A stretch of DNA of 18,046 bases from a virus (Duplodnaviria > Heunggongvirae > Uroviricota > Caudoviricetes): IMG/VR virus record IMGVR_UViG_2802429220_000008, positions 1 to 18,046 of that record; one strand, written 5' to 3'. The notes below the pieces were generated by a model. That model searched no databases. It was not told the DNA's origin and saw only the letters and a list, made by a program, of their open reading frames with translations. The first letter of the stretch is position 1; every line of letters begins with the position of its first letter. Below, one piece after another: positions 1,404 through 14,397 of the stretch. A program made the position numbers and the translations under genes.

Positions 1404-1790
1404 TTAATGATTAATTGATATTTTGTTGTTTGATTCAACTTTCCCATCGGATGTGTGATGCTTTAAATCACAGGAATTAATACTGCTTGCTGTAAAATGA
1501 TTTTCAAGGGGAGCTATTCGAATCCCTTTCTTTTTCATTAACAAGCCAAATCCTTTATTAATGATGTCCATTAATTCCAGGAAGTATTTTTCATGTAAAT
1601 CCTGGTTATCAGAGAGCTGCTTCTCTTCGCACAGACCGATAAAGGCACGACGCACGTTACCGGATATAGTATCGATGGTTTCTTTTTCTACAGTACTCAG
1701 GTCAAGAGTCGCCAGTTGAGAGCGAACCACATTCGATGCCATTTCCTGGAATGGTACTGGTAAATCTTTAAATTCCATCGTCAACCTCAT
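1404..1790 (-). CDS. Hypothetical early-operon protein (possibly an intact YdfB/YdfC-like gene)
   Basis: 128-aa ORF with ATGA overlap to the upstream YdfA-like gene; position between ydfA-like and dicF-like elements as in the Qin dicB operon. Confidence 0.6.
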   Translation of the reverse strand: MRLTMEFKDLPVPFQEMASNVVRSQLATLDLSTVEKETIDTISGNVRRAFIGLCEEKQLSDNQDLHEKYFLELMDIINKGFGLLMKKKGIRIAPLENHFTASSINSCDLKHHTSDGKVESNNKISINH

Positions 1791-2118: not shown

Positions 2119-2148
2119 AATCTACAATTAAAAACTGTTTTGTGTCAA
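2119..2148 (-). promoter_or_regulatory. Candidate leftward early promoter (PL-like) embedded in the operator palindrome
   Basis: On minus strand: -35 TTGACA (2148..2143), 18-bp spacer, -10 TAGATT (2124..2119); faces the ydfA-like/dicB operon. Confidence 0.4.
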
Positions 2149-2171: not shown

Positions 2172-2197
2172 CAAAAAAACTCCCTCGAATGAGGGAG
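2172..2197 (-). terminator. Intrinsic terminator ending the repressor-antitoxin-toxin operon
   Basis: Stem ctccctc/gagggag with loop gaat; on the minus strand it is followed by a 7-8 nt U-tract; lies 18 bp past the toxin stop. Confidence 0.6.
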
Positions 2198-2214
2198 TGT
2201 GAAAATTGTTCAGT

Positions 2215-2502
2215 TCAGATAGGGAAGGGAAATTGTCGGCGGGCATGCACAATATTTGCAATTTCAATGCTTGAAGCTGCTACTCGGTACAAAACGATAT
2301 AATTAGGGTGAACCACAATTTCCCGCAAACCGGATACTCGATCACTTGGCGGATATAGATATGGATGCTCAGAGAGGGCTAAAACAGACGTTTCAATCCG
2401 TATTTTTAGTCTGCGTGCTGCAGGAATATTTTCCTTAGCAATATAGGCTACGATCTGACGCAAATCATCGCGAGCAGATGGTAGCCACAAAATGGGTAAC
2501 AT
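2215..2502 (-). CDS. parE: ParE/RelE-superfamily type II toxin (ParE-like)
   Basis: 95 aa with typical ParE features (LWLPSARDDL, GLREIVVHPNYIVLYRV, IANIVHARR); TAATG stop/start overlap with the upstream antitoxin gene. Confidence 0.85.
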   Translation of the reverse strand: MLPILWLPSARDDLRQIVAYIAKENIPAARRLKIRIETSVLALSEHPYLYPPSDRVSGLREIVVHPNYIVLYRVAASSIEIANIVHARRQFPFPI

Positions 2503-2693
2503 TACTCGCTCCTGTTAGTTACAGCAATTTGAGCAATAAGATTCTCCATTTCAGCCATTACCTCATCATGTGGAATTGAGGGACGAGGGTCAGCAAGGCT
2601 TGACGCCACTTTAGCGCGTAACCATTCGTTGTAACTGTTTTCTTGTTCGGTAGTTTCGAATTCTGAAACTATCGGAGAAAGGGCTGTACTCAT
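2502..2693 (-). CDS. Small antitoxin paired with ParE (PaaA-like, 63 aa)
   Basis: 63-aa acidic ORF immediately upstream of and overlapping the ParE toxin; size and context match PaaA-type antitoxins of the paaR-paaA-parE three-component modules (from memory). Confidence 0.75.
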   Translation of the reverse strand: MSTALSPIVSEFETTEQENSYNEWLRAKVASSLADPRPSIPHDEVMAEMENLIAQIAVTNRSE

Positions 2694-2720
2694 GGCATAA
2701 CTCCTCTTCTTGTACTGTGG

Positions 2721-3122
2721 TCACGCCCGGCGGCTTTTTTGTGCCGCCAACCACCGGGCAATGGTTTCTTCCATTGATTTTTTCTTGTCTTTGATTTCTT
2801 GAAGCATTTTTTCTTGGTCTTCCTCTGGAAACGCACTAAAAGCCTGGAGCAGTTCGCGTTGACGAGGACCAATTTTCATCGTGTCAGGGGTGAAAATTTG
2901 CTCCCCCTCTTCAGGAGGCAATAAAAACCAATGCAATGGATGCCCTGTAACCTCAACCAGTTTATCCAAACTTGAGGCTTTAGGTGTAGCCTTACCGCTG
3001 ACCCATTGTTGAACAGTTTGTTGTGTCACACCAATTCTACGGGCAAGCTCAGCCTGGCTCCATCCAGTTTCCTGAAGAAGCTTGCTGATTCTGTACATAG
3101 ATACTTCTAGGGCGTTCATCAT
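2721..3122 (-). CDS. Prophage repressor, HTH_XRE type without a LexA-like peptidase domain (DicA/PaaR-like)
   Basis: 133 aa; N-terminal HTH (ISKLLQETGWSQAELARRIGVTQQTVQQWVSG), C-terminal SPRQRELLQAFSAFPEEDQEKM similar in style to DicA; divergent from the cro-like gene; operators on both sides. Confidence 0.8.
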   Translation of the reverse strand: MMNALEVSMYRISKLLQETGWSQAELARRIGVTQQTVQQWVSGKATPKASSLDKLVEVTGHPLHWFLLPPEEGEQIFTPDTMKIGPRQRELLQAFSAFPEEDQEKMLQEIKDKKKSMEETIARWLAAQKSRRA

Positions 3123-3160
3123 TATTCAATTTTACAGGTAAATACTGTTAAAAGCATCAC

Positions 3161-3195
3161 AATAAAAAACTGTTGATTGTGTACAGTTTTTTATT
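3161..3195. promoter_or_regulatory. Operator palindrome (OR-like): aataaaaaactgt-tgattgtgt-acagttttttatt
   Basis: Perfect 13-bp inverted arms in the repressor/cro-like intergenic region; same half-site and spacing as 2126-2160; candidate -10 TATAGT at 3208-3213 just downstream. Confidence 0.65.
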
Positions 3196-3231
3196 GTAGG
3201 CTTTGCTTATAGTTTTTTAGAGGAGAGCAAA

Positions 3232-3504
3232 ATGCTAGATAGCACTCGCGAAAAAATTAGGCAGAAATACACTCAAGCTGAAATAGGTCGTTATATGGGG
3301 GTCGCTCAACAGACAGTTTGGCAATGGTTTAGCTTTGACGTTCCCCCAAAGCAGGTAATTCCGTTATGTCAGCTAATGAAGTGGGAAGTTACCCCGCATG
3401 AAATTCGCCCTGATATTTATCCTAACCCAACCGACGGTTTACCTGTTGGATTCAAGGTTAACACATCAAATGCACCGGAGTTGATTCATGAAAATCAAGC
3501 ATGA
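3232..3504 (+). CDS. Cro-like regulator, YdaS family
   Basis: 90 aa; HTH-like AEIGRYMGVAQQTVWQWF and the YdaS-type motif TPHEIRPDIYPNP; AGGAGAG RBS; divergent from repressor. Confidence 0.75.
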   Translation: MLDSTREKIRQKYTQAEIGRYMGVAQQTVWQWFSFDVPPKQVIPLCQLMKWEVTPHEIRPDIYPNPTDGLPVGFKVNTSNAPELIHENQA

Positions 3505-3913
3505 ACACATCCGCATGGCGATGAATGCCTGGGCGCGTCCTGATGGCGAAAAAGTTCCAGTAGCTGGAATAACCCAGGCTTATTTTGAGTTGGGTATGAC
3601 GTTTCCTGAACTGTATGACGACAGCCATCCGGAAGCCCTGTCTCGTAATACCCAGAAAATTTTCCGCTGGGTAGAAAAAGACACCCCTGATGCGGTTAAA
3701 AAAATTCAGGCGTTGTTACCGGCGATCGAAAAAGCAATGCCGCCTCCACTGGTGGCCCGAATGCGCAGCCACAGTTCGGAATATCACCGGGAGCTTGTCG
3801 AGCGACGGGAGCGCCTGGTGAAAGATATCGATGAGTTTGTTGCGGCAGCGATCGTGTTGTTCGATCAGATGAATCGTGGTGGTCCGGCGGGAAATGCCGT
3901 GGTGGCGCATTGA
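3488..3913 (+). CDS. YdaT-family protein (CII-like regulator / toxic when derepressed)
   Basis: 141 aa starting MKIKHEHI, which matches my memory of YdaT; follows the YdaS-like gene with a 17-nt overlap. Confidence 0.7.
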   Translation: MKIKHEHIRMAMNAWARPDGEKVPVAGITQAYFELGMTFPELYDDSHPEALSRNTQKIFRWVEKDTPDAVKKIQALLPAIEKAMPPPLVARMRSHSSEYHRELVERRERLVKDIDEFVAAAIVLFDQMNRGGPAGNAVVAH

Positions 3914-7786: not shown

Positions 7787-7849
7787 TGCTGCGGGTGCTT
7801 GAGGCTGTCTGCCTCGGGCATGCCACCGTAAGGCAGACAGAGAAAAGCC

Positions 7850-7915
7850 CCAGTTAACATTACGCGTCCTGCAAGACGCCTAACATTAATCTGAGGCCAA
7901 TTTCATGCTAGACAT
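7850..7915 (-). ncRNA. Predicted Sok-like antisense RNA region (boundaries uncertain)
   Basis: Inferred from hok-family organisation; candidate minus-strand promoter -35 TTGCCT (7948..7943), 17-bp spacer, -10 TAACCT (7925..7920) would give an RNA antisense to the mok start; no clean terminator found. Confidence 0.25.
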
Positions 7916-8117
7916 ATGTAGGTTAGCCTCTTACGCGCCGAAAGGCAAGGAGAAGCAGGCTATGAAGCAGCAAAAGGCGATGTTAATCGCCCTGATCGTC
8001 ATCTGTATCACCGTCATAGTGACGGCACTGGTAACGAGGAAAGACCTCTGCGAGGTACGAATCCGAACCGGCCAGACGGAGGTCGCTGTCTTCACAGCTT
8101 ACGAACCTGAGGAGTAA
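7905..8117 (+). CDS. Mok-like reading frame (in-frame leader encompassing hok)
   Basis: 70-aa ORF MLDICRLASYAPKGKEKQAMKQQK... with GAGG 8 nt upstream; same frame as hok, resembling the arrangement remembered for MokC/HokC. Confidence 0.5.
   Translation: MLDICRLASYAPKGKEKQAMKQQKAMLIALIVICITVIVTALVTRKDLCEVRIRTGQTEVAVFTAYEPEE
7962..8117 (+). CDS. hok: Hok/Gef-family type I toxin (HokD/RelF-like, 51 aa)
   Basis: MKQQKAMLIALIVICITVIVTALVTRKDLCEVRIRTGQTEVAVFTAYEPEE: single TM helix plus conserved TRKDLCE...REVA.F.AYE motif. Confidence 0.9.
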   Translation: MKQQKAMLIALIVICITVIVTALVTRKDLCEVRIRTGQTEVAVFTAYEPEE

Positions 8118-9627: not shown

Positions 9628-9990
9628 ATGTGTATAGAGTTTGTTTTGCCTTACCCGCCGACGGTGAATACTTACTGGCGACGTCGTGGCAGCACATATT
9701 TTGTATCAAAAGCCGGGGAGCGTTATCGCCGGGCAGTGGCGTTTATTGTTCGCCAGCAGCAGTTGAAATTAAGCCTGTCCGGACGGCTGGCAATAAAAAT
9801 TATTGCAGAGCCACCGGATAAGCGCCGCCGTGACCTGGACAATATTCTGAAAGCACCGCTGGATGCGCTGACGCACGCGGGGTTGTTAATGGACGATGAA
9901 CAGTTTGATGAAATCAATATTGTACGTGGTCAGCCAGTATCTGGTGGACGGCTGGAAATAAGAATTACAGAGGTGGGTGTGCATGAATAA
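9628..9990 (+). CDS. rusA: RusA Holliday junction resolvase
   Basis: 120 aa from ATG 9628: LPYPPTVNTYW...RRRDLDNILKAPLDALTHAGLLMDDEQ...GGRLEIRITE, colinear with E. coli RusA. Confidence 0.9.
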   Translation: MCIEFVLPYPPTVNTYWRRRGSTYFVSKAGERYRRAVAFIVRQQQLKLSLSGRLAIKIIAEPPDKRRRDLDNILKAPLDALTHAGLLMDDEQFDEINIVRGQPVSGGRLEIRITEVGVHE

Positions 9991-10672
9991 CCAGTATTTA
10001 CAGTTTGTTCGTGAGCAACTCATGATTGCCACTGCAGATCTCAGTGGGTCGACAAAAGGCCAGCTGGAAGCCTGGCAGGAAAATGCCCTGTTCGATACAG
10101 GGCGTTACAGACGCAAAAAAATTCGTTACCGCGATGAGGTAACTGGAAAAATGATCACGCGGGATAATCCCCCGATCCAGGGTAAACAATCACTGGCGAA
10201 AGGCTCATCAATTGCGCTGGTCAGTCCTGTTGAGTTTGCAACATCATCGTGGCGGCGTGCCCTTCTGGAACTGGAAGAACATCAGAAGGCGTGGTTGTTG
10301 TGGTGTTATGGCGGAAACATTTGCTGGGAGCATCAGATCGCGATAACGCAGTGGGTGTGGAGTGAATTTAAAACTCAGTCCGGCTCCAGAAAAATTGCAG
10401 TGAAAACGCTGGAGCGTGTGAAGAAGTTGATCTGGCTGGCGGCACAGGATGTCAGAGGATGGGTTACCGGGTGTGAGGTCTACCAGAGACAGGAGCTTGC
10501 CAGACTGTGTGGAGTTAAGCCTGATAACTGGAGCCATAATTATGCGAACTACTGGCGTGAGATGTGCGATATTTTTAAGCGCCTCGATAGAGAATCCTTG
10601 ATTTGCTCCGTGAAAATAAGAGCGCAACAAAAAGCGACCTTTTCACGACGAGATATTGCAAAAGTCAATTAA
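9983..10672 (+). CDS. Late-gene antiterminator Q-like protein (Qin QuuQ / phage 82-type), assigned mainly by position
   Basis: 229 aa directly after rusA and before a short terminated region; start ATG 9983 overlaps the rusA stop with GAGG upstream; no sequence-level confirmation. Confidence 0.5.
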   Translation: MNNQYLQFVREQLMIATADLSGSTKGQLEAWQENALFDTGRYRRKKIRYRDEVTGKMITRDNPPIQGKQSLAKGSSIALVSPVEFATSSWRRALLELEEHQKAWLLWCYGGNICWEHQIAITQWVWSEFKTQSGSRKIAVKTLERVKKLIWLAAQDVRGWVTGCEVYQRQELARLCGVKPDNWSHNYANYWREMCDIFKRLDRESLICSVKIRAQQKATFSRRDIAKVN

Positions 10673-11232: not shown

Positions 11233-12291
11233 ATGCTTAATACTGTAAAAATATCCAGTTGTGAGTTAATCAACGCCGACTGCCTGGAATTTATCCGGTC
11301 GTTACCCGAAAATTCTGTTGACCTGATAGTCACGGACCCGCCGTACTTTAAAGTGAAGCCTGAGGGCTGGGATAACCAGTGGAAGGGCGACGATGATTAC
11401 CTGAAGTGGCTGGACCAGTGTCTTGCGCAGTTCTGGCGGGTGCTGAAACCTGCCGGAAGTCTTTACCTGTTCTGTGGCCATCGCCTGGCATCTGATATCG
11501 AAATCATGATGCGTGAACGCTTCAGTGTGCTGAACCATATTATCTGGGCGAAGCCGTCCGGACGCTGGAACGGGTGCAACAAGGAAAGCCTGCGGGCGTA
11601 TTTTCCGGCAACAGAGCGCATTCTGTTCGCGGAACATTATCAGGGGCCGTATCGTCCGAAAGATGCCGGGTATGAGGCGAAGGGCAGGGCACTGAAACAG
11701 CATGTGATGGCCCCGCTGATTGCTTACTTTCGTGATGCGCGCGCTACCCTGGGGATAACGGCAAAACAGATTGTGGATGCCACAGGAAAGAAAAACATGG
11801 TGTCGCACTGGTTCAGTGCCAGCCAGTGGCAGTTACCGAACGAGGATGATTACAGAAAACTTCAGGTGCTGTTTGCCCGGGTGGCAGAAGAGAAACATCA
11901 GCGGGGTGAACTGGAAAAGCCACATCACCAACTGGTCAGCACATACAGTGAGCTGAACCGGCAGTATGCCAGCCTGCTGGAAGAGTACAAATCACTGCGG
12001 CGTTATTTTTCCGTATCGGCAGCCGTTCCTTATACGGATGTCTGGACGCACAAGCCTGTGCAGTATTATCCGGGCAAACATCCCTGTGAAAAACCGGCAG
12101 ATATGTTGCGGCAAATGATTACCGCCAGCAGTCGTCCGGGTGACCTGGTTGCAGATTTCTTCATGGGGTCCGGTTCGACAGTCAAAGCAGCGATGGCGCT
12201 GGGGCGTCGTGCAATTGGTGTCGAGCTGGAGGCTGAACGTTTTGAGCAGACCGCAAGGGATGTACAGAATTTAATCAGAAAGAGAGAGTGA
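11233..12291 (+). CDS. Orphan DNA methyltransferase (N6-adenine or N4-cytosine, DPPY motif)
   Basis: 352 aa; DLIVTDPPYF near the N-terminus and FFMGSGST near the C-terminus; no adjacent restriction endonuclease ORF. Confidence 0.8.
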   Translation: MLNTVKISSCELINADCLEFIRSLPENSVDLIVTDPPYFKVKPEGWDNQWKGDDDYLKWLDQCLAQFWRVLKPAGSLYLFCGHRLASDIEIMMRERFSVLNHIIWAKPSGRWNGCNKESLRAYFPATERILFAEHYQGPYRPKDAGYEAKGRALKQHVMAPLIAYFRDARATLGITAKQIVDATGKKNMVSHWFSASQWQLPNEDDYRKLQVLFARVAEEKHQRGELEKPHHQLVSTYSELNRQYASLLEEYKSLRRYFSVSAAVPYTDVWTHKPVQYYPGKHPCEKPADMLRQMITASSRPGDLVADFFMGSGSTVKAAMALGRRAIGVELEAERFEQTARDVQNLIRKRE

Positions 12292-12331
12292 TATTGCTGA
12301 ATTTATTCTGTAACGTTATCATTATGTTATC

Positions 12332-12407
12332 GGCCCTTTAGCTCAGTGGTGAGAGCGAGCGACTCATAATCGCCAGGTCGCTGGTTCAAATCCAGCAAGG
12401 GCCACCA
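12332..12407 (+). tRNA. tRNA with CAU anticodon (Met, or Ile2 if lysidine-modified)
   Basis: Manual fold: acceptor ggccctt/aagggcc, D-arm gctc..gagc, anticodon loop cuCAUaa, T-arm gctgg-ttcaaat-ccagc, 3' ACCA. Confidence 0.85.
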
Positions 12408-12408
12408 A

Positions 12409-12474
12409 CCGCCACTAGCTCATCAGGAAAGAACGTCACCCTGTGCGAGATTCGGAGTCCCCGGTGGCGGTCCA
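12409..12474 (+). other. tRNA-like remnant (perfect acceptor stem and CCA but too short, no canonical T-arm)
   Basis: ccgccac ... gtggcgg followed by tcca, 66 nt overall, sitting between two intact tRNAs where Stx-type phages carry three tRNAs. Confidence 0.35.
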
Positions 12475-12487
12475 TTATCAGCATTAT

Positions 12488-12564
12488 GCGTTGTTAGCTC
12501 AGCCGGACAGAGCAATTGCCTTCTAAGCAATCGGTCACTGGTTCGAATCCAGTACAACGCGCCA
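12488..12564 (+). tRNA. tRNA-Arg (anticodon UCU)
   Basis: Manual fold: acceptor gcgttgt/acaacgc, D-arm gctc..gagc, anticodon stem attgc/gcaat with loop cuUCUaa, T-arm cactg-gttcgaat-ccagt, GCCA end. Confidence 0.85.
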
Positions 12565-12575
12565 TATTTATTTAC

Positions 12576-12617
12576 CTGGCTCGCTTTTGCGGGCCTTTTT
12601 TGTATCTGCGTTACACC
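12576..12617 (+). repeat. Terminator-like element, copy A (ggctcgc-tttt-gcgggcc + ttttttgtatctgcg)
   Basis: Imperfect hairpin plus T-tract directly downstream of tRNA-Arg; about 80 percent identical to 13173-13213. Confidence 0.6.
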
Positions 12618-12653
12618 ATTAACTAATAAATCGAGTGCTTATCAGGAGGCTAT

Positions 12654-12878
12654 GTGAAAAAACTGATGGTGACGATTGGTCCGTTCGAAACAGAAGTTAG
12701 TTTTCGTGTTGTTCAGGGGGAGAGTGTACTTGTTGAAGATGTATTTCATGGAAAATCAACAGGTCCTTATGTAAAAGAATATCTTATCGACGCCACGGAT
12801 GAAAATATTGAGGTGGTGTACGATTCCGTCAATCACCCTGATTTGATCATTAAGGCAAAATTGAAGCCACTTTATTGA
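12654..12878 (+). CDS. Hypothetical small protein (74 aa), AT-rich cargo gene
   Basis: AGGAGG 4 nt upstream of GTG start; MKKLMVTIGPFETEVSFRVVQGESVLVEDVFHGK...; no family recognised. Confidence 0.5.
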   Translation: MKKLMVTIGPFETEVSFRVVQGESVLVEDVFHGKSTGPYVKEYLIDATDENIEVVYDSVNHPDLIIKAKLKPLY

Positions 12879-12930
12879 TCTGACCGGGAGCAATCATAAA
12901 ATATCTCTGGGTACCCACAAGGAGATAAAT

Positions 12931-13140
12931 ATGTTTGTTTCTGAAGTGTTAATGGAAGATAAGGACAACAAAGGATGGGTTAAAGGTTGGGCTGTGGTAA
13001 GAAGCTCGCCCTGGCATCTTGTTGGGGTTTTTGCGACAGAGGAAGACGCAGAAACGGAAGCAAGAAAGATGGGAGATAAGTACGAGGTTCACTATGGCTC
13101 GCATCGAACAGGAAGTGATGATTTTGTCTGGGGGGAGTAA
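12931..13140 (+). CDS. Hypothetical small protein (69 aa)
   Basis: AAGGAG 6 nt upstream of ATG; MFVSEVLMEDKDNKGWVKGWAVVRSSPWHLVGVFATEEDAETEARKMG...; no family recognised. Confidence 0.55.
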   Translation: MFVSEVLMEDKDNKGWVKGWAVVRSSPWHLVGVFATEEDAETEARKMGDKYEVHYGSHRTGSDDFVWGE

Positions 13141-13172
13141 CAGTCGTTTAACCCCAGAATAATCCCGTAACT

Positions 13173-13213
13173 GAGGTCGCTATTGGCGGCCTTTTTTGTA
13201 TCCGCGCCACGCC
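13173..13213 (+). repeat. Terminator-like element, copy B (ggtcgc-tatt-ggcggcc + ttttttgtatccgcg)
   Basis: Second copy of the element at 12576-12617; together they bracket the two small ORFs. Confidence 0.6.
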
Positions 13214-13329
13214 CGGCACATATCAACCACAGAGCCTTTCGGGGGTGAGCTTACGGAGTGGTCAGTGTGACTTTCTCTGTGGGCAGATCGCTCCCGGGCG
13301 TTGGCTCACCCACCCAAAGGAACGTCACG

Positions 13330-13761
13330 ATGTTTGGTATTTTCAAAAAGAAAACCCGCAGAGCAGCAGCGGAAATTAAAAAGTTTGAGAAACGTGATCT
13401 GGCACAGGCGGTTATTAATGCTGCCTATCTGGTGGCCTATGCAGATGGTGAATGTGAGGCTTCAGAGAAAGCGAAGATCGAGCAGGTCTTGCGTAACCAG
13501 CCAGCGTTGTCCGCGTTTACGTCAGAAATTAATGCTATCAGTGCCACGATCACAGGTCAGCTTGACACCAACTTTAAAATTGGTCGTCGAGCGGCGTTGC
13601 GTGAAATTGAAGATGTGAAACACGATACGCGTGAAGCGGAAGATGTGCTGGATGTGGCGGTGGCCATTGCTGAAGCAGATGGTGAAATTGAGCCGGAAGA
13701 GCGTAAGGTTCTGGAAGAGATCGCCGGTGTTCTTGGCCTGCGACTGGAGAACCACCTGTGA
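13330..13761 (+). CDS. TerB-like domain protein
   Basis: 143 aa from ATG 13330 (AGGA 8 nt upstream); two TerB-like repeats AYADGECEASEKAKIEQVL and AEADGEIEPEERKVLEEIAGVLGL. Confidence 0.6.
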   Translation: MFGIFKKKTRRAAAEIKKFEKRDLAQAVINAAYLVAYADGECEASEKAKIEQVLRNQPALSAFTSEINAISATITGQLDTNFKIGRRAALREIEDVKHDTREAEDVLDVAVAIAEADGEIEPEERKVLEEIAGVLGLRLENHL

Positions 13762-13922: not shown

Positions 13923-14156
13923 CCGGGTATCAGTCATGCCCTGAAAATTTTAAATGTCTCACAATTCAGACGGTTGACAGTTGTCTGGTTTGCGGGGAGT
14001 TTGTTAAAAGAAACTGGCATGGTGAATCCCCCTGAGCGGAGGGGCATATCAGCGCAGGTGTTTCTACTCTATCCTTTCTGTGCGGGTTCAGGTGCTGATA
14101 CTGAACTCACCGGGAGGCACCCGGCACCATGCAAGAAAAAGAATGTGCATGCAAAC

Positions 14157-14184
14157 ATGCCCCTCTCCGGAGGGGCATTTTTAT
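14157..14184 (+). terminator. Intrinsic terminator
   Basis: Perfect 9-bp stem atgcccctc/gaggggcat, loop tccg, then ttttat. Confidence 0.6.
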
Positions 14185-14397
14185 GGGTAAAAAATGCCCG
14201 AATGGGTTCGGGCAATAGCATGAGATACTGATATTGTTGTGTTGTTATCGTGTGGATTTTAACCAGGGTTTATCAGGCTGCGCAACTGCGTGGCCTTTTT
14301 TCATTTCTTGGGCTGTAGTCCCCGTGTGTCATTCAGGCTTCCGGACTACAGCCCACTCCATATCTGATTTAATACACTATCCCGGCCGGGAGGAATA

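Follow-up and report, generated by a model that had tools for sequence, protein, structure and literature searches.

The 18,046-nt stretch of IMG/VR record IMGVR_UViG_2802429220_000008 (Caudoviricetes), which is called the window in the following, carries a toxin-antitoxin (TA) pair directly behind the repressor gene of a phage, and this raises the question of what such a pair does in an immunity region. A sequence-only reading had placed three open reading frames (ORFs) on one strand at 2215–3122, namely a repressor, a 63-aa antitoxin and an overlapping ParE toxin, and all three were recovered at these coordinates on the minus strand:

2721–3122, minus strand: PaaR-type immunity repressor, 133 aa, 402 bp, intact ORF
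2502–2693, minus strand: PaaA-family antitoxin, 63 aa, 192 bp, intact ORF
2215–2502, minus strand: ParE-family toxin, 95 aa, 288 bp, full-length ORF

The answer that we favor, with a probability of about 0.88, is that a lambdoid E. coli prophage has its lysogeny operon here, that this operon belongs to the paaR-paaA-parE family, that it is an allele of the copy in Sp4/CP-933M (the "paaR1-paaA1-parE1" type), and that it works as described for the prophage CP-933P. In CP-933P, the roles of CI, Cro and CII are taken by PaaR2, YdaS and YdaT, respectively, and the module is addictive (Jurėnas et al. 2021, PMC8630535). For the window itself, the gene content, the homology, the operon geometry, the anatomy of the operators and the terminator, and purifying selection are established.

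The profile search that had been proposed as a check matched the three proteins to HTH_3, PaaA2 and ParE_toxin, respectively. In the repressor, HTH_3 was matched by the N-terminal domain (1.7e-13), with weaker Pfam matches to Phage_CI_repr (9.7e-6) and to other helix-turn-helix (HTH) models, and among the solved structures only the HTH of the 434 repressor was matched. The NCBIfam DicA model aligned with nearly the whole protein at 4e-14, under its curated cutoff. In BLASTP comparisons, the repressor was 42% identical to PaaR2 over 98 aa (E 2e-20) and 28% identical to DicA of the prophage Qin over 111 aa, including the C-terminal domain (E 2e-12). This C-terminal DicA/PaaR domain of about 46 aa (Q-x-ELLQ-x-F-x-AFPEEDQ...ARWLAAQK-x-RRA) is common to all five aligned loci, the repressors of which have different N-terminal HTH domains. 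A Pfam search of the repressor gave no match to Peptidase_S24, the autocleavage domain of the lambda CI/LexA type; the C-terminus is a helical domain of the DicA/PaaR type, and PaaR2 (PMC8630535) and DicA likewise have no S24 domain. The protein belongs to the prophage repressors of the DicA/PaaR type.

The sole Pfam match of the antitoxin was PaaA2 (PF21217, "stability determinant", 1.1e-21). It also scored 96 bits with the NCBIfam equivalog TA_RelB_antitoxin, which has a cutoff of 50, and matched PaaA2 in the PDB (3ZBE/5CW7) with an E value of 1.5e-22. No DNA-binding domain of the HTH, ribbon-helix-helix or AbrB type was detected in its 63 aa, and because PaaA lacks such a domain, the transcriptional control of the TA pair would be handled by the prophage switch. 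The toxin matched Pfam ParE_toxin (PF05016) at 6.6e-16 over profile positions 1–89 of 89, and it aligned without gaps with residues 1–93 of ParE2 of E. coli O157:H7 (5CW7/5CZE; phmmer, E 1.2e-37). Its overall identity to the crystallised ParE2 is 65%, the conserved C-terminal motif HARRQFP is kept, and after ParE2 the next-closest solved structures are other ParE "plasmid stabilization" proteins. An identity as a RelE/StbE mRNA interferase was rejected, because the score with NCBIfam TIGR02385 was 26.1 bits and thus below the cutoff of 27.9, and because ParE2 is by far the closest structure. For the two ORFs downstream of the repressor, PaaA2 and ParE_toxin were the only Pfam matches, and no homology to RexA or RexB was found.

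The three genes are closely packed. The spacer between repressor and antitoxin, previously given as 28 bp, comprises 27 nt (2694–2720) and carries a GAGGAG Shine-Dalgarno (SD) motif at 2701–2706, 7 nt 5′ of the antitoxin ATG. The antitoxin stop codon and the toxin start codon share one base (TAATG). The operon ends, as had been claimed, at an intrinsic terminator:

2172–2198, minus strand: intrinsic terminator closing the repressor-antitoxin-toxin operon, also kept in Sakai Sp4

The terminator begins 16 nt past the toxin stop codon and consists of an 8-bp stem (2179–2198) with a 4-nt loop and a U7 tract, and its folding energy is −13.8 kcal/mol (z = −3.1). A terminator of its own behind the repressor gene, which the sequence-only reading had named as a finding that would speak against it, was not found: in a consensus scan of the minus strand, no terminator-like site was called that would separate the TA pair from the repressor. 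At the sequence level, repressor, antitoxin and toxin form one operon on one strand with a single terminator at its end.

Two structured elements were predicted around the spacer. The repressor ORF has a GC hairpin of 6 bp (GGCGGC, an A/C-rich loop, GCCGCC) at its 3′ end (2722–2745, minus strand), which lacks a U tract after it. In addition, the region of the repressor stop codon and the start of the spacer are predicted to pair with the stretch between the paaA SD motif and the AUG (z = −2.4). The structured region at 2694–2745 could tune translation of the antitoxin or the stability of the mRNA, or it could be due to chance.

The operon is flanked by two palindromes at OR-like and OL-like positions, and the following control elements were assigned:

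3159–3197, no strand: OR-like operator, 39-bp palindrome with 15-nt arms that are 100% complementary
2124–2162, no strand: OL-like operator, 39-bp palindrome with two arms of 15–16 nt (ACAATTAAAAACTGT(T) / (A)ACAGTTTTTAATTGT)
2119–2148, minus strand: PL-like leftward promoter, TTGACA-18-TAGATT, 10 of 12 consensus matches in the promoter scan
3173–3202, plus strand: putative PR-like rightward promoter, TTGATT-18-TAGGCT inside the OR palindrome, with the same geometry as the PL-like site, read from the sequence
3129–3134, minus strand: TAAAAT, putative PRM-like −10 hexamer, separated from the repressor ATG by 6 nt, read from the sequence

The palindromes that the earlier reading had noted on both sides do exist. 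Their core, AAAAACTGT-N9-ACAGTTTTT, occurs exactly twice in 18 kb, at 2130–2156 and at 3165–3191, with a chance expectation of 0.01. The operon thus lies between OR-like and OL/PL-like operators, which bears out the proposed equivalence with the position of rexAB. The OL-like palindrome is an inverted repeat with 16-nt arms that are 100% complementary, and it is kept in Sp4. The OR-like palindrome is situated in the 109-nt intergenic region between the repressor gene and ydaS (3123–3231), which also contains two families of direct repeats, and an extra half-site-like copy was found nearby at 3203–3219. The −35 element of the PL-like promoter falls within the spacer of the OL palindrome. This promoter faces ydfA (DUF1391), a 128-aa ORF at 1404–1790 and further leftward genes, among which dicB is annotated in related prophages, and the site would be analogous to PL933P (PMC8630535). 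The putative PR-like promoter would drive ydaS-ydaT. No SD motif precedes the repressor ATG. In paaR2, the mRNA of which was shown to be leaderless, the arrangement is GATAAT-TACCAC-ATG (PMC8630535). The lack of an SD motif together with the same spacing of −10 hexamer, 6 nt and ATG suggests, by analogy, that the repressor mRNA of the window is leaderless as well.

Divergently from the repressor gene, the counterparts of Cro and CII follow:

3232–3504, plus strand: YdaS-family Cro analogue, 90 aa, divergent from the repressor, Pfam YdaS_toxin 1.6e-9, phrog_35 (transcriptional repressor) 8.5e-28
3488–3913, plus strand: YdaT-family CII analogue, 141 aa, Pfam YdaT_toxin 3.2e-10, phrog_163 (CII-like activator) 3.5e-47
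3481–3498, no strand: YdaT operator motif TTGATT-N6-AATCAA, single exact match in the window, on the junction of the ydaS stop and the ydaT start

The YdaT operator motif and its function have been defined in CP-933P (Prolič-Kalinšek et al. 2023, PMC9986795). If it functions in the same way here, its presence implies a conserved, YdaT-controlled and PRE-like alternative start for leftward transcription of the repressor-TA operon.

The functional side of the proposed mechanism is taken from CP-933P, for which PaaR2 footprints on OR, mobility shift assays (EMSA) and reporter repression of PR and PL, a YdaT-activated PRE, and bistability have been described (PMC8630535). For ParE2/PaaA2, stabilisation of a mini-F plasmid, post-segregational killing, and ClpAP/ClpXP-dependent decay of PaaA2 were reported, and growth inhibition, SOS induction and neutralisation by PaaA are known for the toxin (PMC8630535). 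DNA binding, leaderless translation, toxicity, lability of PaaA and addiction would be expected for the window allele from this paralog. The repressor, as the CI analogue, would probably be produced from a leaderless PRM-like transcript and would probably bind to OR at 3159–3197 and to OL at 2124–2162, silencing both the ydaS/ydaT operon and the PL-like promoter. Its transcript would run on through paaA and parE to the terminator at 2172–2198, and a lysogen would then make a toxin and a labile antitoxin alongside immunity. The YdaT-activated PRE-like start would be a second way into the operon. Upon loss or replacement of the region, PaaA would decay and ParE would be freed, which would lead to nucleoid-associated DNA damage, SOS induction and killing of the segregant. 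Through this addiction, the TA module would stabilise both the immunity region and the prophage.

The closest relatives of the locus are found in E. coli chromosomes. The 1.15-kb region around it is 100% identical in several of them, near matches are present in 569 of 5426 complete E. coli genomes (about 10%), distant matches were found in 842, and in RefSeq identical sequences already carry an annotation as a TA pair. Genomes of O157:H7 contain exactly two related loci each. One of them belongs to the Sakai prophage Sp4 (ECs_1069, "phage repressor protein"; ECs_1068; ECs_1067, "plasmid stabilization system protein"), and its proteins are 98% (repressor), 90% (antitoxin) and 86% (toxin) identical to those of the window. 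The toxin of the other locus (L007) is 100% identical to the crystallised ParE2, and its regulator starts with MQKKE, which is the experimentally determined N-terminus of PaaR2 (PMC8630535). This second locus is paaR2-paaA2-parE2 of CP-933P, and the respective identities to the window proteins are 34%, 65% and 65%. A paaR2-paaA2-parE2 homologue is carried by CP-933M (PMC8630535). As there are two loci per O157:H7 genome and the other one encodes ParE2/PaaR2, we infer by elimination that the Sp4 copy is the CP-933M homologue; the names paaR1/paaA1/parE1 would likewise follow by elimination, together with a secondary citation. The resemblance to paaR-paaA-parE that had been noticed from the letters alone is one of family membership, with the O157:H7 Sp4/CP-933M copy as the ortholog.

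A DNA-level search of deposited phage genomes for the module gave no match, and at the protein level a ParE of this type was encoded by a single deposited phage genome, that of phage Evi (LR597642.1); the family has therefore been seen almost only in prophages. The Evi locus (L008, 2416–3276) encodes a paaR2-like regulator and has a 192-bp antitoxin gene, and its parE ORF (3001–3276 of the locus) has no annotation in the record. A further arrangement was observed in E. coli O170:H18 (L005, 2985–3984), where a type-1 paaA-parE pair accompanies a 166-aa repressor with an unrelated N-terminal HTH and the same C-terminal 46-aa PaaR/DicA domain. As judged from these alignments, the TA pair travels with several immunity specificities.

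The comparison with Sp4 revealed that the three genes have not diverged uniformly. Nucleotide identities were 97.5% for the repressor, 93.8% for the antitoxin and 78.8% for the toxin, and the dN/dS values were 0.14, 0.25 and 0.06, respectively, with a dS of 1.35 for the toxin. The divergence is limited to the body of parE (2215–2450), with nucleotide identities of 70–82%, whereas the flanks, i.e. paaA, the repressor gene, the terminator and OL, are 90–100% identical. The prophage around the operon is mosaic. This pattern identifies the parE body as a local allele replacement under strong purifying selection and not as a product of decay. Furthermore, the C-terminus of the antitoxin and the N-terminal region of the toxin co-vary. 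One class comprises the window, Sp4, L003 and L005, and the other comprises CP-933P and L004, which suggests that the PaaA/ParE classes may be specificity types.

Known systems resemble the locus to different degrees. The Sp4/CP-933M locus has the same gene order, gene sizes (402, 192 and 288 bp), overlaps, terminator, OR and OL palindromes, and ydfA/ydaS/ydaT neighbours, and differs in the divergent parE allele of the window. CP-933P (Hallez 2010; PMC8630535; 5CW7, 5CZE, 3ZBE) shares the three-gene architecture between OR and OL/PL and divergent from ydaS-ydaT, the C-terminal domain of PaaR, the N-terminal ParE-binding region of PaaA, the ParE fold, the −10 hexamer 6 nt ahead of the repressor ATG, and the YdaT operator motif, but its PaaA C-terminus and ParE N-terminal region belong to another co-varying class. 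Lambda cI-rexA-rexB is likewise a leftward, lysogen-expressed operon that has the repressor gene first, OR and OL on either side, and accessory genes able to harm the host. In contrast to the window, lambda CI has an S24 autocleavage domain, and a Rex-type sensor and membrane channel, to which the TA pair has no sequence homology, takes the place of type II TA addiction. That paaA2-parE2 replace rexA-rexB in CP-933P has been stated explicitly as a positional equivalence (PMC9986795). The cryptic K-12 prophage Qin, with its DicA-DicC immunity region, has a homologous repressor gene, dicA, and the same leftward neighbour, ydfA, which is followed by ydfB, ydfC and dicB in Qin and in related TA-carrying prophages. 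However, in Qin only a 166-nt gap lies between dicA and ydfA, and no TA pair is present; the pair can therefore be regarded as accessory cargo in the slot between repressor and OL, the place of rexAB in lambda. Canonical parDE systems (RK2, Vibrio, Caulobacter) also have a ParE-family toxin and an upstream antitoxin gene that overlaps the toxin gene, but their ParD contains a ribbon-helix-helix DNA-binding domain, whereas the window antitoxin is not ParD and autoregulation would be delegated to a separate phage repressor. As far as they can be tested in sequence, all defining features of PaaR-PaaA-ParE systems and of lambdoid immunity regions are present in the locus.

Several points weigh against the transfer of the CP-933P model to the window. 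The HTH domain of the CP-933P repressor is unrelated in sequence to that of the window repressor (34% overall identity), and the immunity specificity is different. The CP-933P operators are four 18-bp repeats of the GTTTAGTAA type, whereas the window has two-arm 39-bp palindromes of another sequence. Because the HTH domain and the operators differ completely from those of PaaR2, the operator assignment and the order of occupancy are based on analogy only. The −10 element of the PR-like promoter (TAGGCT) and the −35 element of the PRM-like promoter are weak, and the consensus scan called neither promoter. In CP-933P itself no activation of ParE2 was observed in either switch state, and the molecular target of ParE2-type toxins is still unsettled (PMC8630535).

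Alternatively, the TA pair might mainly be an abortive-infection or superinfection-exclusion device analogous to RexAB, in which infection by another phage frees ParE and the lysogen is killed or arrested, and addiction would be secondary. Other prophage-borne type II TA systems are generally known to defend against phages; moreover, the pair sits in the lysogen-expressed slot of rexAB (PMC9986795), and in CP-933P it is transcribed in both switch states without a detectable role (PMC8630535). Nevertheless, neither PaaA nor ParE matched any of the PADLOC defence models, with which the repressor gave generic HTH matches only, no phage-defence phenotype is reported for the family in PMC8630535 or PMC9986795, and the phenotype that was demonstrated is post-segregational killing (PMC8630535). 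We regard defence as the main role as unlikely, and both roles could coexist. The expression of the CP-933P TA reporter in both switch states (PMC8630535) would also be compatible with an independent paaA-parE transcription unit that has its own promoter in or just after the repressor gene, similar to PLIT for rexB in lambda, so that the adjacency would be incidental, and the structured region, which extends from the end of the repressor gene across the 27-nt spacer, could be taken to point in the same direction. However, the consensus scan called no sigma-70-like site on the minus strand at 2694–3122, the 27-nt gap holds just the SD motif, no terminator follows the repressor gene, and the paralog was reported as a three-gene operon (PMC8630535, citing Hallez 2010). 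An independent unit is thus very unlikely, and an internal promoter would add to co-transcription and not replace it.

The two remaining explanations concern single proteins. The HTH protein could serve the TA operon alone, as its regulator or "split antitoxin", and not be the immunity repressor of the prophage. In favor of this, the original description of the family was that of a three-component TA system, and the S24 autocleavage domain of CI is absent from the protein. Such a restricted role is extremely unlikely in view of the operator palindrome that is repeated about 1 kb away over a PL-like promoter facing the ydfA side, the divergent pairing with Cro- and CII-like genes, the homologous DicA, which holds the same position in Qin without a TA pair, and the repression of PR and PL by PaaR2 (PMC8630535). 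It is about equally improbable that the toxin is a decayed or inactive remnant and that the module no longer works. Many such prophages are cryptic, and between the window and Sp4 the parE body has diverged to an unusual extent (78.8% nucleotide identity versus 97.5% for the repressor gene). Disruption of the toxin ORF, which the sequence-only reading had named as evidence against itself, was not found, however, and a disrupted or decaying toxin was rejected: the ORF is full length, its product aligns without gaps with ParE2 residues 1–93 and with the whole Pfam profile, a dN/dS of 0.06 at a dS of 1.35 indicates strong purifying selection, HARRQFP is kept, and the antitoxin is intact and of the matching type-1 allele. 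The lysogeny operon with an addictive TA module, as in CP-933P, remains the explanation that we prefer.

The allele exchange in parE and the co-variation of the PaaA C-terminus with the ParE N-terminus allow a speculation that goes beyond this explanation and that we consider quite unlikely. Ongoing allele swapping could generate TA specificities that do not cross-neutralise among co-resident lambdoid prophages, so that every immunity region would be "addictive" in its own right. In addition, the module might act in a RexAB-like manner against heteroimmune relatives, by exclusion or abortive infection.

As a whole, the window corresponds to the early region of a lambdoid prophage. The leftward neighbour gene, beyond the OL-like palindrome, is ydfA. 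Past ydfA, the 128-aa ORF at 1404–1790 (minus strand), which would be transcribed from the PL-like promoter, matched phrog_6937 (unknown function) at 3e-75 and had no match in Pfam, NCBIfam or PADLOC. Rightward of ydaT, O-like and DnaC-like replication genes, hok/sok, Q, tRNAs and lysis genes are encoded. The sok antitoxin RNA was detected at 7793–7967 (plus strand; Rfam, 114 bits). As hok/sok is a type I locus in the same prophage, the element has at least two TA systems. The gene for the antiterminator Q is located at 9977–10672, and downstream of it were found a DNA methylase gene (11233–12291), two Rfam tRNA matches (12332–12404 and 12488–12561) and a 167-aa ORF with a TerB domain (13258–13761; Pfam TerB 3.8e-16). 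We take this region (11233–13761) to be the cargo slot in which Stx phages carry stx, and no stx gene was seen in it. Further downstream, a match to the small RNA (sRNA) STnc100 (13988–14188, plus strand, 152 bits) adjoins a match to the anti-GcvB sRNA AgvB (14189–14250, minus strand, 96 bits), with the tRNA cluster on one side of the pair and a SASA-family esterase gene (14398–16248) on the other.

The arrangement of the locus and its interpretation, including the equivalence with rexAB and the addiction function, have already been published (PMC8630535, PMC9986795), and the only local peculiarity is the divergent parE allele under strong purifying selection. The locus raises no new question, but the CP-933P model could be tested in it as a second, heteroimmune case. 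For annotation, the three genes should be named paaR, paaA and parE (type 1) and not "RelB/RelE" or "hypothetical", and YdaS and YdaT should be described as Cro- and CII-like regulators and not as toxins. Taken together, the results confirm that the PaaR-PaaA-ParE immunity-region architecture of the O157:H7 cryptic prophages is widespread, and that it is combined with repressors of several specificities, which have one C-terminal domain in common.

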